Assembly (NCBI GenBank): GCA_016937015.1
Contig: JAFGWT010000327.1
Location: forward strand, 4,911-68,910
Direction: 5' to 3'
Length of the DNA: 64,000 nucleotides
Origin: Deltaproteobacteria bacterium
GTDB taxonomy: Bacteria > Myxococcota_A > Polyangia > JAAYKL01
Part shown: positions 3,199 to 34,333 of the stretch, piece by piece
Numbering within the stretch: the stretch's first letter is position 1
Layout of the letters: each line of letters begins with the position of its first letter
Notes under the pieces: generated by a model
What the model saw: only the letters and a program-made list of their open reading frames with translations
The model's database searches: none
What the model was told of the DNA's origin: nothing
Program-made: the position numbers and the translations under genes

Positions 3199-3347
3199 CT
3201 ACATCTCCTTAAAAATGAAGCATAATAAACACAGGCTTTATTCTAAAAGATTGCCGGGCAACATACAAACAGTCCTATTCGGAAACGGACAATCATCCCA
3301 ATGGCTGGTCATGGCAATGCTTTGGGCAGGCAGATTCGCAACGTAAC

Positions 3348-17700: not shown

Positions 17701-19680
17701 CGCGCTGGCGGGGCGATTCCTTAAAATTCGATAATCTCCATTTTTTAAATTAAGACGAATCGGAATTGTACCTGTCACGCTAATTGCACGTGCGCCTTTT
17801 CCAGCGCCATCCACATTGAGTAACAGATGTTTGTTTTTCAACTCCCCCTGAACTGACAATGTCGAAAATGAAATATCGCGAAAAATAAGATCCGTTGCGT
17901 TTAATGTTAATTGGATGGATGGATTTTGCAAAGTCCCCGATACGGTCATGGATCCTTCCAGCGTCCCCGTTATCGGTTCAGAAAAATACGGATTAAACTG
18001 TTTCATCTCAACGTTGCTGATTGCCACTTTTCCATTTAACAGGTCTTGTTTCCGTTCAAACTGTTCAATCAAAACGCCGGCACCGTTAATCTGAAGGTCG
18101 ATTGGTGACATGGAACGAACAGCATTACTGGTGACCAGCAGCCGAAATGGTGCCATGGTTTTAAGTTGCAAATCGGACAGGGAGCTGTTGATATGATCGA
18201 TATTAACGGTGATGTCCTCCCCTATGGAAACCCGAACATCAGCGGAGGCGGCGCCAACTTTTCCCTGTAACACTCGAAACGAGAGTTGCGCTTCTGTCCC
18301 ATCATACGTTCCCCCCGCTCTTACCTGCCGAAATGATTTGTTGCCCGCCCGAAAATCATCCAGCGTTACTGTTCCATCCAATGCGGTAATGTTTTTCCCA
18401 AATGCTGCGTTCAGTTCAGCCTCGGCAGCTAGTGCAGACAATTTATCGTATGCCCCATCTCGCAATTTTAGTGACGCATTGCACGTTGACTCAATATCCA
18501 AATAACATTCCCCATTTGCCGAAAGCGTTTCCACATGCCCCGTTATTCCAAAGTGGCCTGCGACATTGGGAGAAATTTTTCCGTTTGCTGCATACCGCAC
18601 TTTGCCATGCCCATGCAGATCACCGTTGTATGATCCGGACAAAAGCATATCGTCCTGTTCCAGATAAACATTGGCATTAATGACGTTGCTTTTCAGTTTT
18701 GCATCGAACTTAAAACCCGTTTTACCAAATGGTTGCATCTCACAATCCTGGCAGCTGAACTCAGACAAAATCACTGGTTGACCAGCACTGTCGAATTCCA
18801 CCGATAAAGCCCCGCCGCCCTTGATTCGTCCATCCAGTATGACTGGCCAGTGGGACTTGCCCAGCATTTTTTTAAGTGACGGCACCACCACTTCGTACCG
18901 AATTCCGGATTTCATTCCTTTGCTAAGAGCGGCAGTCAGAATCAGTCGAATTTTGCCCCAGTCAGCCCTGACCTCAAGTGCGGTATTTAACTGATCGTTC
19001 TCCAACTCAATGCGATGTGCATCATCAATATGAAAATAAAAATTCTGTTGTCGCCAAATACCGCGACCTTTTAATCGCTGAACATTAATTGTGAGTTTTC
19101 GGTGCCATTCGATAGCGCAGGAGAGAGTATCCAAACCAATCTTCGCTGGTGCCCCATTGGTTAAAACCAAACTGAGATTCATGTTTTCAAGCTGAATATT
19201 GGGAGCGTCTAATATAACAGGCAATGCAGGAATCAACAGGTTCGTCTCTGTTCGGGAAGTACGCTCCCGGGCGATGAGCAAATCAGCCAAAGCAAACGGC
19301 TGCTCACGAGATGACGCGGACACGTCAACGTGACTGATTCTGAATGTTTCTATAGTGATTTTCTTTTGGAACAGGTGGAGTGGCAAAATCCTGAGATGCA
19401 GTTCTCCAATTCGCAACACTTCTTCATCCGTTGATGTTCTGCCCGTGATGTGTTTGAGTGTCAGCCCATCGGCGAATGTGCCATTGAGTTCACCTATCGA
19501 AATTTCGCCTGAAATTCGGGAATTGTACCATTCCGTAAAACGACCAGCCACCAACTTTGCCCCTGTGGCACTGTAAAAAGCAAACAACCACAGACTTACT
19601 GCAGCCAATAACAAAACGACTAATGACCCGCCCAGCCATATATGGCGGGACAGAATGCCTTTTTTTGCAGACAATCGCAC
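14782..19680 (-). CDS. tamB: Translocation/assembly module TamB-like protein
   Basis: 1632 aa, N-terminal TM anchor, beta-taco repeats (VTGTLGAP), C-terminal LTLSSSPALTEEQILTLLVSG; adjacent to an Omp85 gene. Confidence 0.85.
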   Translation of the reverse strand: MRLSAKKGILSRHIWLGGSLVVLLLAAVSLWLFAFYSATGAKLVAGRFTEWYNSRISGEISIGELNGTFADGLTLKHITGRTSTDEEVLRIGELHLRILPLHLFQKKITIETFRISHVDVSASSREQPFALADLLIARERTSRTETNLLIPALPVILDAPNIQLENMNLSLVLTNGAPAKIGLDTLSCAIEWHRKLTINVQRLKGRGIWRQQNFYFHIDDAHRIELENDQLNTALEVRADWGKIRLILTAALSKGMKSGIRYEVVVPSLKKMLGKSHWPVILDGRIKGGGALSVEFDSAGQPVILSEFSCQDCEMQPFGKTGFKFDAKLKSNVINANVYLEQDDMLLSGSYNGDLHGHGKVRYAANGKISPNVAGHFGITGHVETLSANGECYLDIESTCNASLKLRDGAYDKLSALAAEAELNAAFGKNITALDGTVTLDDFRAGNKSFRQVRAGGTYDGTEAQLSFRVLQGKVGAASADVRVSIGEDITVNIDHINSSLSDLQLKTMAPFRLLVTSNAVRSMSPIDLQINGAGVLIEQFERKQDLLNGKVAISNVEMKQFNPYFSEPITGTLEGSMTVSGTLQNPSIQLTLNATDLIFRDISFSTLSVQGELKNKHLLLNVDGAGKGARAISVTGTIPIRLNLKNGDYRILRNRPASAKWTFSRLDHVWVEKFGQLPHGLKIFLDGSGELNVSGSQLEMLGELKGNISHSSIGDMEIQLAHEIRSDSQTLHIETVDRQGNPVAIDVASTLNMDGILNSKYAGGGVDVTASIGDSKLGLQAKLDDSIIHMHATAHRFSLATIGAYLNMENLDGHIDGDIKFSYDPLTQNIHPVSDSGWHLDLVVEHLSPDQFPHWHIDLGLLRFDASLTAALLCDGHEISGSGQLGGWLGDGALIRFPAHLNFDVRQKSQALNAEWLMPNGVPAKLELSGTLNIGTISKTKFEPHQWQALLNWGDAATSVTAFVTDMQNIKVKYQIRNFSPVLLRPMVMLEGLDGVLSARGGLVLSNGVFSGTTEITATDAVIGDWTMRHLRLTGQYGNETLKMDLSGEHPYGKDFHLNAKIPLRIDVKTRDIVWQSNREHFLYWKIPPVNFYPFRHLLGISDIFDITLGTDGRISGNAEKFKVTSKIGGSIGAAGMMPVFLDGQLVANHHTQELKLSVVQRGQEQSAFFMETVASPSNLMTGRQVWSNIPVSARLQINAIELQLLELLSIPAMSRFGGKAVAKVDVTGTLGAPIMVGRLKLQDGQFSITGLANRIHGVNGEFRLKGKKIAIPWFKFRSARGSGSLVGNAQFNSQGLEGRGRLKMSRFPVSLAGLPRFIVDLKSDATFRLDRDRFDLDVTMKNTLLTKPAEERNAARFVPTNSNVTVRNSFDENETVEDLSNYRIHLKSESPILVKGRDLNTAWKANLILARNDGVSQVEGSIDAAGGTFNLFQNSFAIERGELTIADAPGNGAFLQLESSSNISSYTVYLNVSGNLLHPRLTLSSSPALTEEQILTLLVSGSTEEDAETSTGAITNLLAVQYPGIHNLLYNRFGISQLRVETTEQGSTALKAGKRVTDRSTVYTVVNANPAKNENDLELQVEIDLTDKTSVGTAVGKNSSSIGIYRRFVLPNREKRPVVIPRRLRDRERE

Positions 19681-21608
19681 TAAAACGCCTCTCCCAGGCC
19701 AAGGTGCACGCCAAAAGCGGGTTCATCCCTATACTCACGCGAATTGTTCAGTCTCAGTCTGTAGCCAACATCAAACCGAATTTTTCCAACGGGTGTATGA
19801 ATACGTATTCCGGAACCTACTGAATAATTCCAGAGGCTTGCTTTGATTGCGTTAACTTCATACTGGACGTCTCCCATGTCCAGAAAAGTAATCACACTAA
19901 ATGCTTTGCTCACTCTAAAACGAAACTCTGCGTTCCCCTGAACCATTGTCTTGCCGCCAATCCATATCTTTTCACAAACCTGTCTGGGCGGGGAATCAGG
20001 GCTTTCCTCTGTGGGTTCAAGGCAGATGTCTACACTGGGAGCGAGCCGCTTGCCCCCCCATCCGCGCACCGTATTGTGTCCGCCTAAAAAGAAGTTGGCA
20101 CGAATTCCGGAATAATCCTTACTCCCAATGGGGTAGATAAATCCCACCTCCCCGTGCAGTGCTATCTGAAAAAATGAGAATGGTCGCCAATAGGCTGAAA
20201 TGGTCGGTCGAACCTTGTGGTATGCCACCTCACTGGCAAGATATGGCCCCGAGTGCCAGAAATCAAATTGAAGCACAACGCCATTGTTTGGATTGTCCCT
20301 GCTATCGGTCAACCAAAGCAATGTGTTTACATTCACATCAGCGAGGCGGATGGGACTTCGCATATCCTCATAATCCGCCTGCAGTCGCCTCATTATTTCA
20401 TCATTCAGACCATAGAGCACGATGTATTCAAAGTTATACGACAGTCGGATATTTAACCTCTTAAGGAAAGGTCTTGATACGGATAGCCGTCCGGAAGGAC
20501 TGAACAGCTTATAGTTTTCTTCCACATCTGTCTGGAATCCCAACGCCATATTCCATACGAGTCGCTTTTCGAGAAATCCTTTTCTGGTGACACTTGGCTC
20601 TATAAGAGTGACAGGCCCCTTGTCCTCTACATCCCAGAAACTGGGCACCAGCGCCCAGCCCAGTTTGGCGCGAAGCTGAAACTGATTCAGTCGACGCATG
20701 AAATTATTGTGCTGATATACAGCCGATGTCCAGCCCAGAAATTTGTTCGTTTCAAACTGTCCACCGACGCCTATCTTGAGATTCTGAAAATTGGCTTCAA
20801 CCAGCGACACATCGACATCGATAACTCCGGGATTGTCCGGTCTCTCTACGGGACTTACTGTAATGAGACGAAAAGCATTCAATTCAGATAGGTTGGATTC
20901 AATCTCATCTTCAACCTTTGGCGTGTACACCAGTCCTTCAAATTCCTCCAATTCCCTGTACACCAGATCATATGGTGCGTGCTCAAGTCCGTGCAGATAA
21001 AACCGTTCAATGGTACACACCGCTTTTGCATCAACATCGAGAATCACGTCAGCGGCATATTCGTCCCGTGTGACAATCATCGACTCTCGTACAGTAGCCA
21101 GGGCATAGCCATCATTTGCAAGCCGGGACTTAACCTGTTTAACTGCCTCGTTCAGTTTTTCCACACTCGCCACATCCCCTTTTTGAAGTGCCAATCCGTC
21201 AATGTATTTTTGTGCATCCGTAACCGGGGACTGCCATTTAATTGCGAACAAACGCACCAGTGAGGGCTGTCCCTCCAGAAGATGAACTCTCAGATGAACC
21301 CACCCTCGAGGCGTCGAACGGACATCCACTCTTATGATTTTGGTGTCATGATATCCTTTGGCTGCATACAGCTGCAAAAGAATATCAAACACCGCCGTTT
21401 CACTCTCTTCCAGATAGGTATCTCTTCTCTGAATTGGCAGATATTTTCTTAACTCGTCGTCAGTCAGCGCCCTGTTCCCGCTGAAAGTAATGGAAGCCAC
21501 ACGTCGTCCTTCCCGAAACTGGGTACCCGGATCTGTCCTATGTCGACATCCATAATTCGCCCATCCTATAATTATTAAAATCAGGAGTCCCAGACTGTAT
21601 CGTTTCAT
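19680..21608 (-). CDS. tamA: Omp85-family TamA/BamA-like outer membrane protein with POTRA domains
   Basis: POTRA ITFSGNRALTDDELR, FFLGGHNTVRGW, TPVGKIRFDVGY, C-terminal LGLGEAF. Confidence 0.88.
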   Translation of the reverse strand: MKRYSLGLLILIIIGWANYGCRHRTDPGTQFREGRRVASITFSGNRALTDDELRKYLPIQRRDTYLEESETAVFDILLQLYAAKGYHDTKIIRVDVRSTPRGWVHLRVHLLEGQPSLVRLFAIKWQSPVTDAQKYIDGLALQKGDVASVEKLNEAVKQVKSRLANDGYALATVRESMIVTRDEYAADVILDVDAKAVCTIERFYLHGLEHAPYDLVYRELEEFEGLVYTPKVEDEIESNLSELNAFRLITVSPVERPDNPGVIDVDVSLVEANFQNLKIGVGGQFETNKFLGWTSAVYQHNNFMRRLNQFQLRAKLGWALVPSFWDVEDKGPVTLIEPSVTRKGFLEKRLVWNMALGFQTDVEENYKLFSPSGRLSVSRPFLKRLNIRLSYNFEYIVLYGLNDEIMRRLQADYEDMRSPIRLADVNVNTLLWLTDSRDNPNNGVVLQFDFWHSGPYLASEVAYHKVRPTISAYWRPFSFFQIALHGEVGFIYPIGSKDYSGIRANFFLGGHNTVRGWGGKRLAPSVDICLEPTEESPDSPPRQVCEKIWIGGKTMVQGNAEFRFRVSKAFSVITFLDMGDVQYEVNAIKASLWNYSVGSGIRIHTPVGKIRFDVGYRLRLNNSREYRDEPAFGVHLGLGEAF

Positions 21609-21713
21609 AGTTTCTGCTTATCGTATCGGAGTCAAAGTCGGCCCCGGCAACTGCATAGATGTATCGCATCATTGATGATTGAGTGCCAGTACAAAGCATG
21701 CTACAAAAAAAAA

Positions 21714-22358
21714 ATGACAAAGCAATTTTATTTATCAGCGTCGGCAGCATGCCGCTTTCATTATTGGTCATTGTTTTTTTTACTTACTGTTTTCACCTTT
21801 ATCTCAGGCGGATGCGACAATGATGAATGCGAAACCACCAAAGACTGCAACGATGACATGATGTGCGTTCAAGGCAAATGCATCGCCCCATCCGATCATA
21901 TTCAGACCGGGGATAGTCCCCAAACGGGCAGCACCATTTCAGGGACTGTACAACAGGACTCCGCGGACGACACAGATGATTCTGATACAGCTTCAGTGCC
22001 GTTGCAGAAGGATACCTCATCTTCAGAAAACCCGATTCCCGATACGGCCTACGGCTCCCTGTTTGACCCCAGTGACCGCGATATCAACTCCCAGCAGCCA
22101 CCTGGATGCGTGATATATCACGATGGTTACTATTCGTGCGCACTGACAGGCTACGTGACCGTCGGAATGTGCGATCTGGTCAACTGGGAAGGCTGCAGCA
22201 GCGCCCTTTTCCCGGAATCATGCAAACTACTTGTTGTCGATGACGTCAGTATTACACTGAAAACCATCTGCTACTCACCGCTCAGCGGGAATGTAGCGGA
22301 TCCTCCCGAATATGCCTGCGCTGATGCTGGAGGCGAATGGCTACCCTGTCCCTACTAA
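21714..22358 (+). CDS. Cys-rich hypothetical lipoprotein
   Basis: Hydrophobic stretch plus lipobox ISGGC; ECETTKDCNDDMMCVQGKC module; D/S/T linker; Cys-rich C-terminal domain. Start codon uncertain. Confidence 0.7.
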   Translation: MTKQFYLSASAACRFHYWSLFFLLTVFTFISGGCDNDECETTKDCNDDMMCVQGKCIAPSDHIQTGDSPQTGSTISGTVQQDSADDTDDSDTASVPLQKDTSSSENPIPDTAYGSLFDPSDRDINSQQPPGCVIYHDGYYSCALTGYVTVGMCDLVNWEGCSSALFPESCKLLVVDDVSITLKTICYSPLSGNVADPPEYACADAGGEWLPCPY

Positions 22359-22389
22359 TGGGTTCAGCAGACTCCAGCCTAAAACAAAC

Positions 22390-22405
22390 TGGCACGCACT
22401 CTGCC
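22390..22405 (+). promoter_or_regulatory. Putative sigma-54 -24/-12 promoter for the GH3-PKS operon
   Basis: TGGCACGCACTCTGCC: GG(22391)-N10-GC(22403), one mismatch to TGGCACG-N4-TTGC, followed by an AT-rich leader. Confidence 0.55.
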
Positions 22406-22543
22406 GTTGATAGACATGCAAGTTAAAACTATTCAAAATAAAGAAATGAACAAATAATGAATAATTTACTTGTTTACATTGCGTGTTTGAAAAGATGTGA
22501 TTAATAAATTGAACAGATTTTACTTGATTCGGAGAGACAATTT

Positions 22544-24259
22544 ATGATTAAGGGAAGACGTATTGCGTCTGGAATAATGGCATTTGGCATTCGCAGAAAA
22601 GGTTTACCGATGCTGAAGCAATTAGATGTCGCATCGGCTAACGTGAAACAGGCACAGCAAAACACCCTGCGAGGAATTATAGAGTACGCGACGAATACAG
22701 CATATGGAAAATCTCATGGATTTGGTTCCATTAAATCGACCAGGGATTTCACGTCTGCAGTGCCCGTCAATGACTGGGAAGCCCACAGGCCATGGGTGGA
22801 ACGCCACGAAAAAGGTGAACCCAACGTGCTGTTTCCGGGAAAACCAATGTTTTATGCGACCACCAGTGGAACCACATCAGCACCTAAGCGGATACCCATT
22901 TCCAGAAAATACCACGATGAATGTTACAATGGGCTCTCAAATATCTGGCTGCACAGCATGTTTCAGCAATCGCCAGGCTTCATGGACGGCTACGACATCA
23001 GTATGGTTGGCAAGGCAATTGAAGGATATACCGATGATGGCACCTCATTTGGCTCGTTTTCAGGGCATATGAATGCATACATGCCTGATTTTATAAAGCG
23101 ATTTCGGGTAATCCCCTTTGAAATACACGATATAGACGATTATCCATCAAAATATTACGCGTTGCTGCGTGTTGCCCTGGCCCATCCTATTCGATGGATA
23201 GTGGCCGCGAACCCCAGCACGCTACTGGAATTGCACCGTTCGGCAATGACCAGCATAGAAGAAATTGTACGGGACATCCATGACGGCACTCTGAAGTCCA
23301 GCCTCCTGATTTCACCGCAAATCCGCCAGAGAATTGAAATACGACTGAAACCGTCACCAAAACGGGCGCGGCAGTTGGAAGCGCTGCTTGCAATGCATGG
23401 AGACAATCTGCGTCCAAAGCACTACTGGCCCACACTTCAAATGATCAACACCTGGAAAAGCGGGAACGCAGCGCTTTATCTGGCGCAGACAAAGAATTTC
23501 TACCCCCCTCATACTGTTATTCGAGAATTCGGTTATCTTGCTACGGAGGCCAGAGCCGGCATAGTCCTTGATAACAATCAGGAAACCAGTATCCTCGCTG
23601 CTCACCTGCTTTATTTCGAGTTCATCGAACGTAGCGATTTATATAACTCGCAACCAACTGTGCTGGGTGCACATGAGCTCGAAAAAGGCGGTGAATACGC
23701 GATTTTAATTACGACACCAAGCGGGCTATATCGATACAACATCAATGATATTCTCAGGGTCGAAGATTTTTACGGCACATTTCCCATGGTCCGTTTTGTT
23801 CAGAAAGGAAGTGGTGTTACGAGTCTGACAGGCGAAAAACTGTATGAGTCTCAGTATCTGGATGCATTTGCGGAAGCGGCGGCGTCACTCAGGCTTCAGA
23901 CAGTATTTCATGCGGCATTTGCGGATCTTGAGGAATCGATGTATCACTGCTTTGTGGAACTCGCAGCTGCTGAAAATATCAACGCAGTGCCAACCGACGA
24001 ACTCGCCAGTCGACTGGACAAGACACTGCAGACAAAGAATCCGGAATATGCGGCAAAACGAAAATCCAATCGCCTGCGTCCACTGAAAATACATTTGCTG
24101 CGGACAAATGCGTTTACTGAATACAAACTTCACCAACTGTCACAGGGCCAGCGTGAAGGCCAATTCAAACTGACCCATCTTCAACAAAACAATGACCAGC
24201 TAAAACTGTTCCAATCTTTAAGTATTGACCATTTTTATTCCAGTGGAGGCGCATTATGA
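22544..24259 (+). CDS. GH3-family (acyl acid-amido synthetase-like) adenylate-forming enzyme
   Basis: ATTSGTTSAPKRIP (P-loop), GYLATE, GLYRYNINDIL, TGEKLYE, NPEYAAKR, GQFKLTHL; GGAG RBS. Confidence 0.9.
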   Translation: MIKGRRIASGIMAFGIRRKGLPMLKQLDVASANVKQAQQNTLRGIIEYATNTAYGKSHGFGSIKSTRDFTSAVPVNDWEAHRPWVERHEKGEPNVLFPGKPMFYATTSGTTSAPKRIPISRKYHDECYNGLSNIWLHSMFQQSPGFMDGYDISMVGKAIEGYTDDGTSFGSFSGHMNAYMPDFIKRFRVIPFEIHDIDDYPSKYYALLRVALAHPIRWIVAANPSTLLELHRSAMTSIEEIVRDIHDGTLKSSLLISPQIRQRIEIRLKPSPKRARQLEALLAMHGDNLRPKHYWPTLQMINTWKSGNAALYLAQTKNFYPPHTVIREFGYLATEARAGIVLDNNQETSILAAHLLYFEFIERSDLYNSQPTVLGAHELEKGGEYAILITTPSGLYRYNINDILRVEDFYGTFPMVRFVQKGSGVTSLTGEKLYESQYLDAFAEAAASLRLQTVFHAAFADLEESMYHCFVELAAAENINAVPTDELASRLDKTLQTKNPEYAAKRKSNRLRPLKIHLLRTNAFTEYKLHQLSQGQREGQFKLTHLQQNNDQLKLFQSLSIDHFYSSGGAL

Positions 24260-27200
24260 AAACGTTAAAGGGCGAGAAAAGAACGCCCATCGCAATTTGC
24301 GGCATAGGTTGCCATTTTCCCGGCGAAGCAGATACACCTGAACGGTTCTGGAATATGCTCAAGGATGGCACCGATGCCATAGGACCCGTTCCCCGAGACA
24401 GATGGAATTCAGATCTCCTCTACGATCCCAATCACAAAACGCGAGGAAAAATCCACATTAAGGAAGGCGGATTCATCAGCAGAGTAGATGAATTCGACGC
24501 TTCTTTTTTTGGCATTTCGCCCCACGAGGCGCACAGCATGGATCCATCGCATCGACTTCTTTTGGAGCACACATTTATGGCATTCGAGGATGCCGGCGAA
24601 CCACTCAATCGTATCGAAGGCGAGCGAGTCGGCGTATTTGTGGGGACCTCCTCATCCGAGTATGGCGGCATCATGCAAAACTTCACCGAGCGGGCCAGTA
24701 TCAATTCACATACAAACGCCGGCAGTTCTCCAGCAATCACAGCCAATCGAATATCGTACGTGTTTGATTTTCACGGCCCAAGCTTCGCGGTGGACACCGC
24801 CTGCTCTGCCAGCCTTTTGGCCGCGCACCTCGCATGTCGCAGCATCTGGAATGGCGAGTCGAGCGCCGCTGTAGTGGCAGGCGTCAACCTGATGCTGAAA
24901 CCGGAACTCCACATTGGTTTCAGCACGGCAGGATTTCTTTCTCCCGATGCCCGTTCAAAGTCATTCGATGCCAGCGCCAACGGTTATGTACGCAGTGAAG
25001 GGGTTGGTGTCCTATACCTCAAGCCCCTCGACCAGGCCATTGCAGACGGCAATAGAATTTACGCAACGATCATTGGAAGTGCCACCAACGAGGATGGACG
25101 CACCAACGGTATCGCCTTGCCTAATCCGGATGCACAGATTGATGTCATCACCATGGCATATGCCGATGCAGGCATTAAACCGGAAATGGTGACATTAGTG
25201 GAGGCCCACGGCACCGGCACCGCGGCGGGTGATCCAATTGAGTGCAACAGCATTGGTGCTGTTATCGGAAAAGACCGAAATGACACCTGCTTAATCGGAT
25301 CAGTGAAAAGCAATATCGGACATACAGAATTGGCATCCGGGAGTGCCGGACTTATTAAACTTGCACTGTCGTTGTATCATCGGGAAGCCCCCCCGGTTGT
25401 TCACTTCAAGACACCCAATCCCAAAGTTGACTTCAACAGGCTGAAGATTCAGGTGGTAGATCGCCACATGCCGATTCCTTCGAGAAATGGTATCATATAC
25501 GCGGGTATCAACTCTTTTGGTTTTGGTGGAGCGAATGTGCATTTGGTAATGCAAAGCTATTCCACTCCACATACCGGTACAACTGTCACCCATGAATCGT
25601 TTCCTCTTCCTCTCCTGCTGTCGGCAAGAAACGACAGTGCACTGCAGCAATTGGCGGGGGCATACAAACGCATCCTGGAAGCGGACAATGTTTCCCTGCC
25701 TGAATTGTCAAAACAAGCCGCAACCCGGCGTTCTCAACTGGAGATTCGTGCAGCGGTTGCCGCCACAGACAGGAGTGACGCCATTGCCAAACTGTCGGAT
25801 ATGGAGAAGGGTATTTCACACCCTCATGTAATAAAAGAGCGACCCACATTACGACAGGCTGATAAAATAGCTTTCGTTTTTTCCGGTCAGGGCCCCCAGT
25901 GGTATGCCATGGGAAGGGAACTGCTGAAAACGGATGAAACGTTCCGCGACACTATAGAGGAAGTCAACGGCCACCTCAAATCGCTCGGATGGCTTGAACG
26001 CGACAATAGCTCCCTTCTTGAGGAGTTGCAACTGGACGAAGCCGAAAGTCGAATAGATAAGACTGAAATTGTACAACCCGCGATCTTCGCACTTCAGGTT
26101 GGTCTCGCCCGTATCTGGAAACGGCTGGGCGTGGAACCCGCCATGGTAACAGGGCATTCCATTGGCGAAGTTGCAGCTGCTTATGTCAGCGGCGCCATCT
26201 CAATGGCAGACGCGGTAAAGGTCGTATTCTGGCGAAGTCGATGTCAGGCAAACGCAGCAGGCCGCGGCCGCATGATGGCCGCCGGTCTTACTGTGAATGA
26301 TGCCCAACCATACCTGTCCAGATTTGATGGAAAAATAGATATAGCTGCGGTTAATGGTGCGGCAATGCTGACACTTGCGGGAGAAAGTGAGGCACTTGAG
26401 GTACTCTCTCAAATGCTCAAAGACGACAAAATATTCTGTCGCTTTTTAGTAGTGGATGTACCCTTTCACAGCTATCTGCTCGATGATGTGGCGGAACAAT
26501 TTAAATCCCGTGCACCGCAATTTAAAGGAGCGGACACGCAAATCCCATACTATTCCACCGTTTTTGGTTGCGCAACAGCGGGCGCCAAAATTAATCGTGA
26601 GTATTGGGCCAGAAATATCAGGGACACTGTCCAGTTTTATCCCACGATTGAAAAGATGATCGACGATGGCGCAACGGTTTTCGTGGAAATCGGCCCGCAC
26701 CCCATCTTATCCCATGGCATTCGTGAAGCGCTTGATGCAAAGCGTGTGAGCGGTGTTATCGTGCCCTCCCTTCGACGGAAAGACTCAGAAAAACTGACGA
26801 TGACACGATCGCTTGCTGCACTGCATGTCAATGGGGTGTCATTGGACTGGAAATATATTTTCAGCCGTGTGGCAGACAAAAATATTCAATTGCCTTTGTA
26901 CCCCTGGCAAAGGGAGAAATTCTGGATCGAATCAAATGTAGCCAGAGAGGCACGCCTTTCCAATCACATACATCATCATCTTCGCCGAAAAACAGTGGCC
27001 GCCGACAATACCACGGATATTATATGGGAAGTGGAACTGGATGCCCGGACCGCACCCTATATTCTGGACCATCGGGTTCAGGGCCCAGTGGTCTACCCCG
27101 GTGCGGGTCATGTTGATCTTGCTGTTGCAGCAGGCATGGCTTCGTTTAATGACGCATTTGGCTTCATTGAAGATATGGAGTTTATGTCTCCGCTTTTCCT

Positions 27201-30200
27201 GAAAGAAGACGGCGCGCCCAATGAAGTTCAGATTCACATTGATACCGATGATGGGCAATTCACCATCGCGTCGAGAGATTCCCAAAATCACAGCAGCGAA
27301 TGGACCTTGCATTCGAAAGGCAAACTTAATTATATAGGCGACAGGTTTGACAGCACACCAGTAACGCTGGCTGTGTTGAAATCCCGAATAGAAGAGCCCG
27401 TCGAACTGGCGCCTCTCTTTGAGACACTGAGCAACGGCGGACTTGACCTTGGCGATACGTTTAGAGGAATTGAAGCATTGAAACGTCGCGACAACGAGGC
27501 GCTTGGCAAAATTCGAATACATCCGTCCATAAAGCCGTTCATGAATCAATTCAAATTGCACCCGGCACTGCTTGATGCGTCATTCCAATCCGCATTTGGC
27601 ATTATCGAGGACCATCACAATATGGGTGTGTACATTCCAAAAAAAATTGGCAGAATAAAATTTTATACCCAACCGGACGGAGATTTTATCTATTCCTATG
27701 CCAGTGCGAAAAAGCATGAAGCGGAATTTATACTTGTCGACATATGGGTGTTCAGTGAAAACGGAACACTAGTAGCCGAAATTCAAAATTTCATGGGGCA
27801 ATATTTGAAGGGCTCCAGAGGTGAAGTGGACGGAGAAATAGACAATCTGTTCTTCAGCCCCCATCTTCGACGTTCATTCAGACCGTCTCAACTATTGAAC
27901 CGCCATTCGGAAAAAACGTTGACGCCTCTCACTGATGTAAGACAGGCTGCACTGGCTGAAATCGCACGGGTCCAGTCGGACGCGGTATTCAGTCCTTTCT
28001 TTGACGAGTTGGGGCCCGCAATGGATGACCTGGCGATTGGATATATCGTTCGCGCATTTGAGAAAATGGGCGCTCCCATTGTCCCTGGTCGCAGATACGA
28101 TATAGAGGGATTGCCCACCAAACTGAAAATTGCACAAAGGCATATACGACTCTTCAAATATATCCTTCAGCAGCTCGAAGAACGAAAAATTTTTATAGCG
28201 GATGGCACCACATATACTGTTGCATCAAAAATCACACTGCCGCAACCCGAGGCCATTTTGCGCCGGGCAACAGCTGACCTTAAGCCGTTCTCATCCGAAT
28301 TGAATTTCTTCAAGCCAGTTGGAGAATCAATAGCAGAGGTGCTGACAGGGTCGCTGGATCCCACTGAGGTGCTTTTTGCCGAATCCAAATGGAACGACAC
28401 AATTGAATATTATTCGTCCGCATATTCCATGAACAAGTATAACCGCATTGCCGCGGCCGCAATTGAATCCCTTGTTCGTGACGCTGGAAACAGATCCATT
28501 CGAATTATTGAAATTGGAGGCGGCACCGGCGGTGTTACACAGGCTATTTTACCGCTGCTATCCCAGAAAAACGCATCATATGTTTTCACCGATATTTCTC
28601 CGGCATTTATGGAACAGGCTCAGAAACGGTTCGCCGATTTTGATTTTATTTCCTACAAAACCTTGAACATCGAAGACCCAGTTGAGGCACAGGGGCAAAG
28701 CGAGCACAGCTACGATTTGGTGATTGCAGCGAACGCTCTTCATGCAACCAAAAATATTCAGGACACACTTAAAAACGTACACGGCTTACTCGCCAACAAT
28801 GGCGTATTGTGCTTACTCGAGGCAACCACAGTGCCGTTTTATGTAAACATAGCATTCGGCATGACTGAAGGGTGGTGGAGATATAATGATGATGTCAGAA
28901 TGTCCCACTGCACCATGAAGCGCAACGACTGGATAAACGTTCTTGAACAAACCGGTTTTGCAGACGCAGTCGCTATGACAGATGTGGAGGATGGTGACTT
29001 TCCGCAGCAGAGTGTGGTCATTGCCAGAGCGGCTGTTCAGCGTCCTAAAATCGAGCCATCCCCAATGCCAGCCAAGTGGATTATTTTTGGCGATAGCAAG
29101 GGAACAGCGACTCAACTCATTTCGCGAATTAAGAATCGCGGTGATGAGTGGACGCTGGTGACATCGGGAAGCATCGCTAAAAGCGACGCCAAACGAGAGC
29201 TGTTCCACCTTCCCGGTGATTTGTCATCGATTAGGCATCTGTTCGACGGTATCAAAGAGACTCGTGTCGAAATTGTATTTGCCAGGCCAATCGATATTGG
29301 TGACATTGAAGATACCGAGCATTTCTTAACAATACGCAATGAAGTTCTGGTTGAGATGACCGCACTCTCCCGCATTCTAATTGAAAAAGGTCTAAGAAAT
29401 GTCACCTTATCCATTATTACGGAGGGCGTTCACAATGCCATGCCGAACATAACGCAATCGGCGATATGGGGAATTGGTCGCGTTATGTTTAACGAGCTTT
29501 CAGACAATCGCATCCGTTTGATAGATATTGCAACTACAGACCTTCAACACATTGAACAGCTATGGGATGAACTGGAGAATGGAGACAGCATTGACGAAGA
29601 AGTAATACTTGGCAGTGGTCAGCGTTTCTCGATTCGATTGGAGCCCCTCTCTCCACAAAAACGCCGAAGCAACTCATTGAAACGAGAAAATATCACTGGA
29701 CTTGGAATTAGACTTAACCCCAACGAAAACGGGATTATTCAACAGGTATATTTTGCTCCATATGATGGCGCGCCCCTTTCTCGGGACGAAGTAATCATTG
29801 AAGTCCATCACGCAGGGCTGAATTTCAGAGATGTTATGGTCGCTGGCGGTGCATTGCCCAAAGACGCCATTGATGGTGGCATTTTTGGCAACGGTCTGGG
29901 ACTGGAATGCGCCGGTATAGTACTCGATACGGGAAGTCATGTTTCCCATGTTAAAGCAGGTGATCGTGTAATGGCCATCTCCGCCAACGCCATTTCCGGC
30001 CGAGCAGTCGCAAAATCGTCTTTTGTACGGCGGATACCACAAAATGTTACAATGGAAATGGCTGCGTCGATTCCGATGGCGGCATTGACGGCGTACACAG
30101 CTCTGGTGCATCTGGGAAACATCCAGCCAGGCAGCAGGGTACTAATCCACGCAGGTGCAGGTGGGGTAGGAATGTATGCGATTCATTTTGCCCTATCCGC

Positions 30201-32619
30201 CGGTGCCACGGTTTTCGCAACTGCATCCCCCGAGAAACACGGACTTCTAAGGGAAATCGGAGTGCATTATATATACAACTCTCGTTCGACCGCCTACTAC
30301 AGCGAAATTATGGCCGACACAAAAGGTGCGGGTATCAATGTGGTACTGAACTCCCTTTCCGGCAGTCATATTACCCAGAGTCTCAAGCTGCTTTCACCAA
30401 TGGGCAGATTTATCGAAATTGGTAAAAAAGATCTATACGCCGACAAACGAATTGGCATGCGTCTGCTCGCTGATAATATATCTTATCACGCACTTGATAT
30501 TGACCGACTTTTGTCTCAGGCGCCGCAGTTGATTTCAACGTTATTTAGTGACGCAGTTGATTTTCTCGAAAAAAACGGATGGCCAAACATCCCGGTTGTT
30601 CATATGCCATTTGAAAACGTTGCGAACGCCTTAACTCAAATGGCTGCCGGAAATCACGTGGGCAAAATCATTTTGGACAGTGGAATTGTTTCGGTACATC
30701 CCAAAGATAGCCTGATACTCAGAGATGATGCAACATATCTTATCGCAGGCGGAACCAGAGGACTCGGTCTTGCAACAGCAGAATTTTTAACGCAAAAAGG
30801 AGCACGCCATATTGCCCTGTTTTCTCGAAGCGGCCTCCACGGCCAGGAAGAAATTGACCGAGTGAAAGCGATGCAGGCGAATGGTATACAGGTAGAGACG
30901 TTCGCGGTTGATATTTGTGATCAGGATGCTGTGAACGACCTTGTGCATAAAGTTCATAATATCGGCAGACCGTTGGCGGGAATTGTCCAATCCACGCTGG
31001 TACTGGAAGATGCATTGCTGCATCAGATGACACCGGATCAAATGGTGGCCCCCTTGCGTCCAAAAATTGAAGGCACATGGAATCTGCATCGCGCCACCCA
31101 AAATATTTCGTTGGATTTCTTCATTTCATTTTCCTCTGTGTCTTCGCTGTATGGATTGCCCGGTCAGGGTAATTATGCTGCTGCCAACCGGTTTCTGGAT
31201 GACTTCTGCAGATACCGACGCGCATTGGGACTGACGGCATCGACGATAAATCTGGGGCCATTGGGGGAAACCGGGTTTGTTTCGAGAGAGGAAAAAATTC
31301 ACGATTACCTTGACCAAAGTGGCTGGCTGCCGCTCTCAAACAGCGAGGTGTTTCGAGCGCTCGAACGCGTCATACTGGAAGGCCATACCCAGACAGGTGT
31401 ATTTCGACTGGACTGGGCCAAATTGAACAACGCATTTCCGGCCCTCGCTGCGTCTCCAAGGTACCAAGCTGTTCGCAAACAGCTTGCAATTCAAGCTGAT
31501 AAAGGAGATGCGAGTAACATTAAACAGCAACTGACGTCAGCATCTGAAAAGGAAAGGCGCACACTTATTCATCAGATTCTCAAAGAAGCAATGGAAAAAA
31601 TACTTGGCATCGACAGGAACAAACTCGATTTTAAAACGCCAATAAACCGAATGGGAATGGATTCACTGATGTCCAATCAACTTCGCAGTGTTTTGACGCA
31701 GCAAACAGGCGTCGAGTTTTCACTGATGCAAATCATGCAGGGCCCAACACTAACGGACCTGGCCACCGAAATAGAGCATGGACTCAAACCGGTCACCACA
31801 GATAAAAATACTAAAAAGACGCCCAAAACCGTATGGTCCAGACCCATCATCCGGCGTCGCAAGGCATCCGTTCGCCTGTTTACCTTGCCGTATCTTGGGG
31901 CGGGCGCGTCGATATTTTCTGACTGGCGTTTATCGCCCGAAATAGAAGTATGCCCCATTCAGCTGCCAGGCCGTGAAGAACGCAGCAACGAGCCCCCAAT
32001 AAGCGTCGGCGAGAATCTGATAAGCGAAATGGCTGCCGGGATTGCACCACTGCTTGACAAACCTTTTGCCCTGTATGGCCACAGCTATGGCGGAAATCTG
32101 GCGATGAGCCTGGCATCATATCTGGATGGCAACCTCGGCAAACGGGCGGAGCATGTGTTCATTGGTGCGGCAATTCCCCCTGGTGTGGAGAATCCGCTTG
32201 AAAATGAGTTCAGGTTAACGGATACCGAAGACGCGCTGAAGCTTTCTGAAAACAGAATGAGGGCACTGCTTGAAAGAATTGGAACACCGCGAGAGCTGCT
32301 GGAAGATGCCCCCAGATTTGCAACCATGCTTCCAGCGTTGCGCGCTGATTTGGGCATTACCAGACAACGGCTGTTTACCAAAGACCATGTGCTGAAATCG
32401 CCAATTACTGCAATTGCAGGAACATCAGACCACCTTTATTCAGAGGAACTTATCGCTCACTGGCAGACTTTCACCACGCAGTTTGCTCTTCATACCGTTG
32501 AGGGGGGACATCTGTTTTTACATGAGCCAGTTGCCAAATCCCAGGTGTTGCAGCACATAAATGAAACGCTTGCTCCCTCATTCGCCGCAAATAGCGGATT
32601 GCCCAGGAAAACCGCATAA
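24256..32619 (+). CDS. Single-module type I PKS: KS-AT-DH-cMT-ER-KR-ACP-TE
   Basis: KS DTACSAS/HGTGT/KSNIGH; AT GHSIG, VPFHS; DH HRVQGPVVYP and LDASFQ; MT IEIGGGTGG, LHAT; ER LIHAGAGGVG; KR GGTRGLG, LED, YAAAN; ACP GMDSL; TE GHSYG and GGH. ATGA overlap with the GH3 gene. Confidence 0.96.
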   Translation: MKTLKGEKRTPIAICGIGCHFPGEADTPERFWNMLKDGTDAIGPVPRDRWNSDLLYDPNHKTRGKIHIKEGGFISRVDEFDASFFGISPHEAHSMDPSHRLLLEHTFMAFEDAGEPLNRIEGERVGVFVGTSSSEYGGIMQNFTERASINSHTNAGSSPAITANRISYVFDFHGPSFAVDTACSASLLAAHLACRSIWNGESSAAVVAGVNLMLKPELHIGFSTAGFLSPDARSKSFDASANGYVRSEGVGVLYLKPLDQAIADGNRIYATIIGSATNEDGRTNGIALPNPDAQIDVITMAYADAGIKPEMVTLVEAHGTGTAAGDPIECNSIGAVIGKDRNDTCLIGSVKSNIGHTELASGSAGLIKLALSLYHREAPPVVHFKTPNPKVDFNRLKIQVVDRHMPIPSRNGIIYAGINSFGFGGANVHLVMQSYSTPHTGTTVTHESFPLPLLLSARNDSALQQLAGAYKRILEADNVSLPELSKQAATRRSQLEIRAAVAATDRSDAIAKLSDMEKGISHPHVIKERPTLRQADKIAFVFSGQGPQWYAMGRELLKTDETFRDTIEEVNGHLKSLGWLERDNSSLLEELQLDEAESRIDKTEIVQPAIFALQVGLARIWKRLGVEPAMVTGHSIGEVAAAYVSGAISMADAVKVVFWRSRCQANAAGRGRMMAAGLTVNDAQPYLSRFDGKIDIAAVNGAAMLTLAGESEALEVLSQMLKDDKIFCRFLVVDVPFHSYLLDDVAEQFKSRAPQFKGADTQIPYYSTVFGCATAGAKINREYWARNIRDTVQFYPTIEKMIDDGATVFVEIGPHPILSHGIREALDAKRVSGVIVPSLRRKDSEKLTMTRSLAALHVNGVSLDWKYIFSRVADKNIQLPLYPWQREKFWIESNVAREARLSNHIHHHLRRKTVAADNTTDIIWEVELDARTAPYILDHRVQGPVVYPGAGHVDLAVAAGMASFNDAFGFIEDMEFMSPLFLKEDGAPNEVQIHIDTDDGQFTIASRDSQNHSSEWTLHSKGKLNYIGDRFDSTPVTLAVLKSRIEEPVELAPLFETLSNGGLDLGDTFRGIEALKRRDNEALGKIRIHPSIKPFMNQFKLHPALLDASFQSAFGIIEDHHNMGVYIPKKIGRIKFYTQPDGDFIYSYASAKKHEAEFILVDIWVFSENGTLVAEIQNFMGQYLKGSRGEVDGEIDNLFFSPHLRRSFRPSQLLNRHSEKTLTPLTDVRQAALAEIARVQSDAVFSPFFDELGPAMDDLAIGYIVRAFEKMGAPIVPGRRYDIEGLPTKLKIAQRHIRLFKYILQQLEERKIFIADGTTYTVASKITLPQPEAILRRATADLKPFSSELNFFKPVGESIAEVLTGSLDPTEVLFAESKWNDTIEYYSSAYSMNKYNRIAAAAIESLVRDAGNRSIRIIEIGGGTGGVTQAILPLLSQKNASYVFTDISPAFMEQAQKRFADFDFISYKTLNIEDPVEAQGQSEHSYDLVIAANALHATKNIQDTLKNVHGLLANNGVLCLLEATTVPFYVNIAFGMTEGWWRYNDDVRMSHCTMKRNDWINVLEQTGFADAVAMTDVEDGDFPQQSVVIARAAVQRPKIEPSPMPAKWIIFGDSKGTATQLISRIKNRGDEWTLVTSGSIAKSDAKRELFHLPGDLSSIRHLFDGIKETRVEIVFARPIDIGDIEDTEHFLTIRNEVLVEMTALSRILIEKGLRNVTLSIITEGVHNAMPNITQSAIWGIGRVMFNELSDNRIRLIDIATTDLQHIEQLWDELENGDSIDEEVILGSGQRFSIRLEPLSPQKRRSNSLKRENITGLGIRLNPNENGIIQQVYFAPYDGAPLSRDEVIIEVHHAGLNFRDVMVAGGALPKDAIDGGIFGNGLGLECAGIVLDTGSHVSHVKAGDRVMAISANAISGRAVAKSSFVRRIPQNVTMEMAASIPMAALTAYTALVHLGNIQPGSRVLIHAGAGGVGMYAIHFALSAGATVFATASPEKHGLLREIGVHYIYNSRSTAYYSEIMADTKGAGINVVLNSLSGSHITQSLKLLSPMGRFIEIGKKDLYADKRIGMRLLADNISYHALDIDRLLSQAPQLISTLFSDAVDFLEKNGWPNIPVVHMPFENVANALTQMAAGNHVGKIILDSGIVSVHPKDSLILRDDATYLIAGGTRGLGLATAEFLTQKGARHIALFSRSGLHGQEEIDRVKAMQANGIQVETFAVDICDQDAVNDLVHKVHNIGRPLAGIVQSTLVLEDALLHQMTPDQMVAPLRPKIEGTWNLHRATQNISLDFFISFSSVSSLYGLPGQGNYAAANRFLDDFCRYRRALGLTASTINLGPLGETGFVSREEKIHDYLDQSGWLPLSNSEVFRALERVILEGHTQTGVFRLDWAKLNNAFPALAASPRYQAVRKQLAIQADKGDASNIKQQLTSASEKERRTLIHQILKEAMEKILGIDRNKLDFKTPINRMGMDSLMSNQLRSVLTQQTGVEFSLMQIMQGPTLTDLATEIEHGLKPVTTDKNTKKTPKTVWSRPIIRRRKASVRLFTLPYLGAGASIFSDWRLSPEIEVCPIQLPGREERSNEPPISVGENLISEMAAGIAPLLDKPFALYGHSYGGNLAMSLASYLDGNLGKRAEHVFIGAAIPPGVENPLENEFRLTDTEDALKLSENRMRALLERIGTPRELLEDAPRFATMLPALRADLGITRQRLFTKDHVLKSPITAIAGTSDHLYSEELIAHWQTFTTQFALHTVEGGHLFLHEPVAKSQVLQHINETLAPSFAANSGLPRKTA

Positions 32620-32682
32620 ATTTTTCGCTGCGCCACATGCATCAAATTTGTGTTTTGTCCAGGATATGGGCGAAAATGACAA

Positions 32683-33381
32683 CTACAGTTCGAGTTTGTA
32701 ACCCAGTTGGCGAACCGTTTTTATGTGCGTTGGTTTGGAGGGATCCTTTTCAATTTTTTGCCGAAGCGACATGATAAAATTGTCAACCGTTCGCGTGGTA
32801 CCATCAAAATTCCAGCCCCAGACGCTACTGAGAATGGATTCGCGACTGAACGGCCGCCCAGGTGCTTTGGCGAGCAACAGCAGCAAATCGAATTCCTTTA
32901 AAGACAGGTCTATCGGATTACCACCAAGGGTTACCGACCGGTTCAACGGATCGATTCGCACTTCACCAAACGCAATGGCCGCATCGCTGCGGGCGAATCC
33001 CCGATGTCTTCGCAGCAGTGCCTCAATTCGCGCGAGCAGTTCCGGTAATTCAAAAGGTTTGGTCACGTAATCATCAGCGCCCAGTTCAAGACCCTCTATT
33101 TTGTTTTCCATCCTGTCGCGCGCTGACAGCAACAGCACCGGTGTATCGCGTGACTGTTCACGCAGCTCTGCCAAAATATCAAGGCCACTCCATCCAGGCA
33201 ACATGATGTCCAGCACAATGAGATCAGGTTTGCTATCGAATGCCATCTCCATGCCCTCGTCTCCATCGCACGCTGACAGTACTTTGTATCCCTGCAACTG
33301 CAGATTCATCACCAGACCTTCACGAACTGCGTTATCGTCTTCGATTACCAAAATCGTTTCATCTCTCATCGTCTTGTGCAC
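32683..33381 (-). CDS. OmpR/PhoB-family response regulator
   Basis: LVIEDD, LDIMLPG, GADDYVTKPF, winged helix RTVDNFIMSLRQKIE, TVRQLGYKL. Confidence 0.95.
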   Translation of the reverse strand: MHKTMRDETILVIEDDNAVREGLVMNLQLQGYKVLSACDGDEGMEMAFDSKPDLIVLDIMLPGWSGLDILAELREQSRDTPVLLLSARDRMENKIEGLELGADDYVTKPFELPELLARIEALLRRHRGFARSDAAIAFGEVRIDPLNRSVTLGGNPIDLSLKEFDLLLLLAKAPGRPFSRESILSSVWGWNFDGTTRTVDNFIMSLRQKIEKDPSKPTHIKTVRQLGYKLEL

Positions 33382-34333
33382 GGGATATTCCTTTCGAAGA
33401 TTTACTCACAGGCAGTTGAACAATAAATGTCGTGCCCTTCTGTGGCTCGCTGCGAACCAGAATACTTCCTTTGTGCAGCAAAACCTGATGTTTTACAATG
33501 GCAAGTCCCAATCCCGCACCTGAAGATTTTCCGCTCAATCTGGAGTCCACCCGATAAAACGGCTCGAAAATACGCTTTTCCTCGGTCTGGGGAAACCCAA
33601 TGCCATTATCTTCAACTTCGAGAATCACTTTGTCGTCACTGTCAAACAGACGAAGCTCAATTTTTTTTAGCCGACCTGTGTACTTATATGCATTGACCAG
33701 CAAATTAAGCACAATGGAATGTATCGACTGTTCATCATGGGTCACGAGCGATCTCGATCCTAGCCGAATGCTAAATTTCAGATCAGTTCCAGAGGTCATT
33801 CTTAAAAAGCGATCCACCGCAGCCTGAACTGTGACATCGATACGGTCGGTTTTCAGGTTGGGTGCAATTCTGTCCCGTGAGGCGGCGCGCCATGTAAGCA
33901 CCCGGTCGATCATCGCCTCCAGCCATTCGGTTTCCCTTAAAATTGTCTGAACGCTTTTTTGCACCAACTCGGGTTCATTCTCAAGCGCGCCCATCTCAAT
34001 GGTCTGGGCGTACATGCGAATCGAAGTCAGCGGGGTACGCAGCTCATGAGTCATATTGGCAACAAAATCTGCCTGCAGCCGCGCAATCCGATGCTTGCGA
34101 ATCAGCAGCACCGTCACCACCACACCTCCACCAATTGCCGCAGCAGCGAAACTTATTACCAATACCCCAAATAAAATCCACCATGAGCCCTTGCCGATGG
34201 AGATGGCAACAATACCTACGGACGTTGAAAGAATCACCGGCAAAAGCACGCCTACCGCTGTCGCCACAATCGCGCCTGTCAGACTCATGCTGTGACGGAT
34301 GCGCTTCTTTCGGGAGTAAGCGGTTTCGGGCAT
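33359..34333 (-). CDS. Membrane sensor histidine kinase with a minimal extracytoplasmic loop
   Basis: Two closely spaced TM helices, THELRTPL, NLLVNAYKY, DNGIG, GAGLGL. Confidence 0.93.
   Translation of the reverse strand: MPETAYSRKKRIRHSMSLTGAIVATAVGVLLPVILSTSVGIVAISIGKGSWWILFGVLVISFAAAAIGGGVVVTVLLIRKHRIARLQADFVANMTHELRTPLTSIRMYAQTIEMGALENEPELVQKSVQTILRETEWLEAMIDRVLTWRAASRDRIAPNLKTDRIDVTVQAAVDRFLRMTSGTDLKFSIRLGSRSLVTHDEQSIHSIVLNLLVNAYKYTGRLKKIELRLFDSDDKVILEVEDNGIGFPQTEEKRIFEPFYRVDSRLSGKSSGAGLGLAIVKHQVLLHKGSILVRSEPQKGTTFIVQLPVSKSSKGISRAQDDER

Follow-up and report, generated by a model that had tools for sequence, protein, structure and literature searches.

What does a bacterium make with a GH3-family ligase whose gene overlaps that of a polyketide synthase (PKS)? 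The question is raised by a 64-kb stretch of DNA from a Deltaproteobacteria bacterium (assembly GCA_016937015.1, contig JAFGWT010000327.1, positions 4,911-68,910 of the forward strand), referred to below in its whole length as the window. Two adjacent genes on its plus strand encode P0001, a GH3-family adenylate-forming acid-amine ligase, and P0002, a single-module, fully reducing type I PKS. The pair is a conserved, uncharacterised biosynthetic unit that joins two known kinds of enzyme in an arrangement we did not find described. Its gene structure, its intact motifs and its conserved linkage are direct observations. The two genes very probably serve one pathway for a methyl-branched acyl product, and we consider it an even call whether they form a self-contained operon that would make a methyl-branched acyl amide (a lipo-amino acid).

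The overlapping GH3 and PKS genes

The GH3 gene (22544..24259, + strand; 571 amino acids, ATG start) and the PKS gene (24256..32619, + strand; 2787 amino acids, ATG start) were delimited from the list of open reading frames (ORFs) and from Pfam matches. A Shine-Dalgarno-like GGAGAG (22531..22536, + strand), read directly from the sequence, lies 7 nt before the GH3 start codon. At the gene junction (24245..24259, + strand; GGAGGCGCATTATGA), likewise read from the sequence, a GGAGG at 24245-24249 is located 6 nt 5' of the PKS start and is followed by an ATGA at 24256-24259, a four-base overlap in which the PKS ATG (24256-24258) shares bases with the GH3 TGA (24257-24259). The stretch around the PKS ATG reads ...GGAGGCGCATTATGAAAACG. 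The ATGA overlap, already reported in the initial annotation, is present as described, and together with the GGAGG it suggests translational coupling of the PKS to the GH3.

The Pfam GH3 N, M and C domains were found in P0001 with E-values of 4.3e-62, 6.5e-21 and 2.8e-17 (210.5, 74.7 and 63.9 bits, all over the cut-offs of 23.6 each), and residues 21 to 561, effectively the full length, align with plant GH3-1 (4b2g; E = 2e-29). The protein also matches the solved structures of JAR1, GH3.5, GH3.6, GH3.8, GH3.12 and GH3.15. The three nucleotide-binding motifs, as they are defined for the family, are TTSGTTSAPKRI, YLATEARAG and GLYRYNINDILRV in P0001 and align with their counterparts in 4b2g, and residues S108, G109, K115, E335, R397, Y398 and D402 are unchanged across 35 homologs. 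GH3 models alone match P0001; Pfam detected no PF00501 (ANL/AMP-binding) domain in it. OlsH (2025) is the only bacterial GH3 with a demonstrated function in the open-access literature we found. It is a GH3-like lyso-ornithine lipid synthetase of Singulisphaera acidiphila, reported to convert free fatty acid, ornithine and ATP to N-acyl ornithine independently of ACP or CoA (PMC12493201). Against the NCBI OlsH equivalog model NF052613, P0001 scores 100.2 bits (cut-off 620; E = 1e-28) in two partial stretches, and by this measure it is a GH3-family protein but no OlsH ortholog. Our search found no longer, fused GH3 forms, which is weak evidence. A complex prediction for the GH3 with the acyl carrier protein domain of the PKS scored 0.00 and speaks neither way.

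P0002 contains eight domains, all encoded on the plus strand, which we list from the N-terminus with their nucleotide positions, Pfam families and the first residue of each motif. The ketosynthase (KS; residues 10-384; 24283..25407; PF00109, PF02801) has DTACS at 180, EAHGTGT at 316 and SNIGHTE at 352, and the acyltransferase (AT; 540-861; 25873..26838; PF00698) has GHSIGE at 633 and VPFHS at 735. They are followed by a dehydratase (DH; 907-1180; 26974..27795; PF21089, PF14765) with HxxxGxxxxP at 939 and DxxxQ at 1107, a C-methyltransferase (cMT; 1401-1569; 28456..28962; PF08242, PF13489) with EIGGGTGG at 1419, NALHAT at 1493 and LLEAT at 1520, and an enoylreductase (ER; 1843-2140; 29782..30675; PF08240, PF00107, PF13602) with HAGAGGVG at 1965. 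The ketoreductase (KR; 2159-2337; 30730..31266; PF08659) has GGTRGLG at 2165, an LDD-like LED at 2250 and YAAAN at 2307, the acyl carrier protein (ACP; 2441-2504; 31576..31767; PF00550) has GMDSL at 2467, and the C-terminal thioesterase (TE; 2540-2770; 31873..32565; PF00975) has GHSYGG at 2608 and GGHLFL at 2750. Because the KS begins at residue 10 with nothing ahead of it, the PKS is without a loading module, as the initial annotation had stated.

Under the usual names of PKS catalytic motifs, the window's PKS has the KS cysteine and two histidines, the AT GHSxG, the DH HxxxGxxxxP and DxxxQ, the cMT ExGxGxG with its histidine and glutamate, the ER and KR nucleotide motifs, the KR YxxxN, the ACP DSL, and the TE GxSxG with its histidine. 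All checked motifs are kept in eight of eight full-length orthologs, with one variation: the nucleophile elbow of the TE is AHSLGA in the ortholog of locus L086 (described below) and GHSxGG in the other seven. The full KS-AT-DH-cMT-ER-KR-ACP-TE module with intact motifs of the initial annotation is thus confirmed by Pfam and by the orthologs. ACP residues D50, S51 and L52 are invariant in the ACP alignment, and the AT motif VPFHS is invariant in all eight orthologs. An AT motif xxFH marks the malonyl type and YASH the methylmalonyl type; VPFHS resembles the malonyl-type xAFH more closely than YASH. The related motif IAFH has been taken as malonyl type (PMC3908369).

In a search of the PDB, the best solved relative of the PKS was mycocerosic acid synthase (Mas; 9d2z, E = 5.5e-262), followed by a 'putative polyketide synthase' (7zma), Dictyostelium Pks16, DEBS modules, LovB and animal fatty acid synthase (FAS). 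LovB ranked seventh (E = 2e-202). The initial annotation had compared the domain order with that of fungal highly reducing PKSs (HR-PKSs). The core order is indeed shared with LovB, but the nearest solved relative is the bacterial Mas. A database search with residues 1200-1850 returned only six close clusters, 36-45% identical in that region and 2769-2805 amino acids long, all with a TE, together with a handful of other proteins of ~2820 amino acids with a TE and many bacterial KS-AT-DH-cMT-ER-KR-ACP proteins without one. Three of the six close clusters bear NCBI names from 'Deltaproteobacteria bacterium' metagenome-assembled genomes (MAGs), and three close GH3 homologs are also named 'Deltaproteobacteria bacterium' at NCBI.

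Downstream of the PKS, and convergent with it, Pfam identified a response regulator (32683-33381, - strand) and a histidine kinase (33359-34333, - strand), in agreement with the earlier description of convergent next genes and no other tailoring genes. Among the other long ORFs of the window, Pfam revealed no further biosynthetic gene, lipid transporter or phosphopantetheinyl transferase (PPTase). GC content over the pair is 0.47-0.51 within a window range of 0.46-0.54, and the pair does not stand out. A scan of 21600-33400 returned 11 promoter-like and 11 terminator-like sites, compared with averages of 15.2 and 12.8 in shuffled sequences, and is uninformative. In one metatranscriptome library from the same study, three short contigs match the window letter for letter (22216-22366, 23672-23862 and 23915-24119), and no contig of that library covers the PKS. 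Such libraries can contain DNA, and the contigs are at most a faint hint of GH3 expression.

Conservation and recurrence of the pair

We searched for relatives in 41 genomes, the window's own and 40 others; the GTDB host family accounts for 21 genomes of the collection. Completeness ranges from 71% to 96%, and absence is to be read as 'not found'. GH3 orthologs with 56-70% identity are present in six other genomes of the family (G001, G002, G003, G005, G009 and G014), and a full-length PKS ortholog (residues ~3-2787, 47-63% identity) was found in exactly those six and in no other genome searched. In each case the two genes are direct neighbours on one strand, their frames overlapping or almost touching, and GH3 comes first and PKS second in all seven family genomes, the window's included. 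Both genes are found in 7 of the 21 family genomes, which span four genera (4/4 genomes of the window's genus, 1/2 of a second genus and 1/1 of each of two more), and neither ortholog was found in the other 14. The identities of GH3 and PKS to the window's proteins fall in roughly the same order across genomes, as expected if the pair was inherited as a unit.

The flanks of the pair are not conserved beyond the genus. In the window, a TamB-like gene (1632 amino acids) and an Omp85/TamA-like gene (642 amino acids) lie divergently upstream of the operon (14782-21608, - strand). TamA/TamB are found upstream of the pair in G001 and G003 only, both of the window's genus, and the corresponding position in G002 holds chemotaxis and kinase genes; this neighbourhood is probably genus-level synteny and not a functional link. 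An Sfp-type PPTase gene is located directly upstream of the pair in G014, and G009 and G005 have unrelated neighbours. Because the flanks differ between genera, the conserved unit is the GH3-PKS pair itself, whose adjacency is thus more than chance. Just 5' of the GH3 gene, a cysteine-rich ORF of 228 amino acids (21672-22358, + strand) has a hydrophobic, signal-peptide-like N-terminus and a GGC lipobox-like site, and matches no family. We considered it as a further member of the unit and rejected it, as a homolog (33% identity) occupies the same position in G003 only.

Other GH3 genes are more widely distributed. The window's genome encodes a second GH3 paralog, 39% identical (G000:C107:11409-12980; L184:9926-11686, - strand), directly after gatA, gatB, aspS and secA on the same strand, which is a housekeeping context. 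A distant paralog with 37-42% identity is common in the family and present in most of its genomes. Of 401 genomes sampled evenly across the phylum, 59 encode some GH3 at E<=1e-30, and outside the window's own genome none of the GH3s in this sample exceeds 38% identity. Two long open frames at GH3 matches in high-GC genomes of the phylum were set aside, as they look like chance-extended ORFs.

To look beyond the family, we ran two collection scans with a 35-sequence GH3 alignment and kept the best 80 of 595 confirmed candidates in genome_contigs and the best 80 of 557 in metagenome_contigs. PKS presence at these loci was assessed with tblastn; many of the contigs are short, which makes the resulting figure an undercount. 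A PKS was found at 2 of the 160 scan loci, L014 and L086, with weak KS-like matches in L160 and none in the remaining 157. L014, from a Spirochaetales MAG, has a GH3 49% identical to P0001 with a PKS downstream, inside which the contig ends. L086, from a Chitinispirillaceae MAG, has a 2825-amino-acid PKS with the same eight domains immediately upstream of a 39%-identical GH3, which is the reversed order. The initial annotation would have been refuted by a linkage conserved nowhere else; this is not the case, since the two genes are linked in 7 of the 21 genomes of the family and in two further phyla.

We constructed a FastTree phylogeny of 166 GH3s and an IQ-TREE 'quick' phylogeny of 39, comprising the 31-row clade that holds all PKS-linked rows and 8 random outgroup rows from the other 135. 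The seven family GH3s and L014 formed one group in both trees (SH-aLRT 82 in IQ-TREE). Their sister is L094 + L095, and the ten together have a support of 96 in IQ-TREE. L086 was placed inside a separate Fibrobacterota clade (support 100), whose other 14 members have no PKS in their flanks. The starred branches of the IQ-TREE phylogeny require the 'PKS-linked' label to have changed at least twice. Taken with the inverted gene order of L086, the tree points to repeated gain or loss of the GH3-PKS association, a pattern that argues for a functional link over inherited synteny.

The neighbours of related GH3 genes differ between clades. L014:2399-14689 carries, in order, genes for an HpnN-like RND transporter, a LolA-like protein, an enolase, a PPTase, a CrtI-family flavoprotein, the GH3 and the PKS. 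The transporter is closest to HpnN/HAE3 lipid exporters and the PPTase is Sfp-type. This locus is an enlarged form of the cluster that includes export genes, and its CrtI-family flavoprotein is a possible desaturase. The enolase-superfamily gene was considered as an N-acyl amino acid racemase and rejected, its nearest NCBIfam model being galactonate dehydratase (sugar-acid dehydratase-like). The gene order GH3, HAD hydrolase, PlsC-type acyltransferase, MMPL transporter is common to L094:4766-11501 and L095:440-6294; in L094 it continues with an Sfp-type PPTase, which shares 39% identity with that of L014. No PKS or ACP ORF is visible in the L094 and L095 flanks, nor any small ACP ORF near the L094 GH3, and these two look like a different GH3-based lipid cluster. 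The contexts of L014, L094 and L095 point to envelope lipid synthesis and export. Glycosyltransferase genes predominate around the Fibrobacterota GH3s, where no lipid gene recurs consistently. As a separate observation, a HAD-superfamily hydrolase gene lies directly downstream of the GH3 on the same strand in 100 of the 166 analysed loci of the wider bacterial GH3 family, often with overlapping codons (for example L100:2211-2987 and L094:6456-7121). This GH3-HAD pair occurs in Treponema, Bacteroidales and others; the PKS-linked clade is without the HAD gene.

Two other parts of the window deserve mention. A radical SAM/SPASM protein (591 amino acids), a right-handed beta-helix protein and a 170-amino-acid ORF with no family match are encoded at 1679-5123 (- strand) and may constitute a peptide-maturation cassette. 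Two abutting ORFs of 225 and 782 amino acids (36414-39439, + strand), the first ending and the second starting at 37091, are without a match in Pfam (E<=0.01) or NCBIfam (E<=0.001).

A candidate pathway and its alternatives

Judging from its domain content, the PKS module would be primed by an acetyl/malonyl or a short or fatty acyl thioester and would extend it with malonyl units, probably iteratively like Mas. Each round could include C-methylation from S-adenosylmethionine (SAM) and full reduction of the beta-carbon by KR, DH and ER, giving a saturated, methyl-branched chain bound to the ACP. The ACP would itself be phosphopantetheinylated by an Sfp-type PPTase; the window's genome has two Sfp-sized candidate matches elsewhere, and some relatives carry a PPTase gene beside the operon. 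In the second step, the fused TE would hydrolyse the thioester to a free carboxylic acid. In the third, following the chemistry of its family, the GH3 with ATP and Mg would adenylate this acid and pass the acyl moiety on to the amine nitrogen of an amino acid or of a different amine, forming an N-acyl amino acid. The importance of the fused TE lies in the free acid that it would supply, which OlsH-type enzymes need. OlsH showed no activity in living E. coli, and its authors point to a shortage of free fatty acid as a possible explanation (PMC12493201). Since GH3s of the same clade adjoin lipid exporters (HpnN/MMPL-type and LolA-like) in relatives, an envelope lipid or surfactant is a likelier product than a metabolite of the cytoplasm.

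Several points weigh against this pathway. P0001 falls far below the cut-off of the OlsH equivalog model (100.2 versus 620 bits), and what OlsH accepts as acid and as acceptor therefore cannot be assumed for it. With a PKS at just 2 of 160 scan loci, most GH3s of the wider family work without one. Sequence gives no reading of whether the module iterates, how long the chain becomes or how many methyl branches it receives. The only tested GH3 in a PKS-type cluster is lol1 of Legionella, and its inactivation is reported to have left legionellol unchanged (PMC5640695).

The main rival, also raised in the initial annotation as activation of the starter unit, reverses the order in which the enzymes act. 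The GH3 would be a loading enzyme that adenylates a fatty or other carboxylic acid and acylates the ACP or KS of the PKS, in the manner of fatty acyl-AMP ligases (FAALs); the PKS would lengthen the chain by one to a few C2 units, methylated and fully reduced, before the TE freed the elongated acid as the end product. In mycobacteria, Mas works with the neighbouring ligase FadD28, which loads the starter, and with MmpL7, and the logic of this mas-fadD28-mmpL7 arrangement would be fitted equally well by the Mas-like PKS, the adenylating enzyme and the MMPL proteins of relatives. That Mas is the best solved relative and that MMPL-type transporters and PPTases occur in relatives count in its favour, as does the missing loading module, but a TE-released acid would then be left without a downstream activating enzyme. 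The GH3 gene comes first in the seven family genomes and in L014, but in L086 the PKS precedes it. Further points count against a loading role: in the wider family a PKS or ACP neighbour is absent from 157 of 160 scan loci, no ACP ORF lies beside the sister GH3 in L094, and we know of no GH3 that acylates a thiol or a carrier protein. The characterised GH3s, those of plants and OlsH, are reported to acylate amines; GH3 proteins are also described as structurally ANL-like (PMC12493201), so that P0001 may function by analogy with a FAAL. On balance, we consider a loading role unlikely.

Amidation of a PKS-derived acid could also proceed with a PKS that does not iterate, a variant that differs in the role of the PKS alone. 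One extension of a fatty acyl-ACP or acyl-CoA from primary metabolism would give a 2-methyl-branched fatty acid, two carbons longer, for conjugation by the GH3. One module could equal one round, the KS at the extreme N-terminus is preceded by no starter-selecting domain, and the mono-modular SwfA has been given both iterative and single-elongation readings (PMC3908369). The nearest solved relatives are instead iterative (Mas, LovB and animal FAS) or assembly-line modules, and we regard this variant as improbable. Least probable is that the genes are co-inherited while the GH3 acts on another substrate, for example to conjugate or inactivate a different acid, and is dispensable for the PKS product: the unaltered legionellol after insertional inactivation of lol1 (PMC5640695) and the housekeeping context of the second GH3 paralog in the same genome would be in line with it, but the perfect co-occurrence in the family (7 genomes with both genes, 14 with neither), the overlapping frames and the recurrence in two phyla with different gene order are hard to explain without a shared pathway.

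Returning to the methyl-branched acyl amide, a broader reading can be put forward tentatively, with somewhat more doubt than confidence. The pair may be a minimal, horizontally mobile two-gene pathway for so-far-unknown lipids, N-acyl amino acids with a SAM-methylated polyketide chain, put together independently at least twice by pairing a GH3 ligase with an iterative PKS that bears a TE, with the fused TE meeting the ligase's need for free fatty acid. With a PPTase, the pair would make up a complete pathway from primary metabolites, which fits movement as a two-gene unit. If this is true, bacterial GH3s would be general 'free-acid to amide' finishing enzymes of lipid and polyketide pathways. 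Uncultured anaerobic sediment bacteria may in this way make a previously undescribed methyl-branched lipo-amino acid, a possible lipid biomarker or biosurfactant, and the pair offers a compact two-gene target for heterologous expression.

Comparison with known systems

The closest enzymatic likeness of P0002 is to Mas, also a single fully reducing module. Mas makes multi-methyl-branched fatty acids, has an adenylating enzyme encoded next door, and resembles our system in the MMPL-type transporters of related loci. Its methyl branches come from methylmalonyl-CoA and it has neither cMT nor TE, an acyltransferase taking the product, whereas P0002 has a cMT, a fused TE and the AT motif VPFHS. The ligase of the Mas type is an ANL/FAAL enzyme, in contrast to P0001, a GH3 without PF00501. 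With the fungal HR-PKS LovB, P0002 shares the core order KS-AT-DH-cMT-ER-KR-ACP, and LovB is iterative with SAM-derived methyl branches. LovB has a C-terminal condensation domain and depends on a trans-ER; P0002 is bacterial, has an intact ER motif and carries a fused TE. As a Mas-like bacterial enzyme with both a cMT and a fused TE, P0002 joins a short list of candidate iterative bacterial HR-PKSs.

Mono-modular PKSs are also found in the Sup and Swf systems of sponge symbionts, where SupA is understood to carry a methyltransferase domain. By their description alone, these systems resemble ours in being FAS-like, in coming from uncultivated bacteria, in forming compact operons with one or two tailoring genes and in being orphan, and they are proposed to be iterative makers of lipid chains (PMC3908369). 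SwfA is described as KS-AT-DH-ER-KR-ACP, a composition without cMT, TE or GH3, and its partners are SwfB (reductase and sulfotransferase) and SwfC (radical SAM) (PMC3908369).

In the open-access PMC and bioRxiv literature, our searches met no account of a GH3 that is coupled with a type I PKS like this one. To that extent the 'undescribed cluster class' of the initial annotation stands, although GH3 genes within PKS clusters have been in print since 2016, when they were noted as occasional, with borrelidin and fostriecin as the examples cited (PMC5640695). In Legionella pneumophila, the legionellol cluster is similar in that the GH3 gene lol1, for which an amide-forming role was proposed, sits in a polyketide-type lipid cluster whose product bears an ornithine-derived head group; its enzymes are described as discrete, type II/III-style proteins, unlike the megasynthase P0002 (PMC5640695).

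The statement of the initial annotation that bacterial GH3 roles are poorly defined no longer wholly applies, since OlsH has been characterised (PMC12493201); a 2026 review repeats the OlsH findings and identifies OlsH as UniProt L0DAW6 (PMC12971839). GH3-like proteins are reported to be widespread, with >7500 BLAST hits, and the authors expect OlsH homologs to use other amino acids (PMC12493201). The terms 'polyketide' and 'PKS' are absent from that paper (PMC12493201). OlsH differs from our system in its partner, the O-acyltransferase OlsI, an alpha/beta-hydrolase, where P0001 has a PKS. Pfam detected no separate alpha/beta-hydrolase gene beside the GH3-PKS pair in the 64-kb window, and a genome-wide search for OlsI was not made. 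A further difference is that a fully reduced PKS product would have no 3-hydroxyl on which a second acyl chain depends. The two systems are alike in having a bacterial GH3 in a lipid pathway, with ATP/Mg-dependent formation of an amide from free fatty acid and amino acid. OlsH, which the initial annotation did not mention, is a biochemical precedent for its idea that the GH3 amidates the PKS-derived acid. A conserved operon of a GH3 with a dedicated, TE-releasing PKS offers a concrete and testable case of the acid used by a bacterial GH3.

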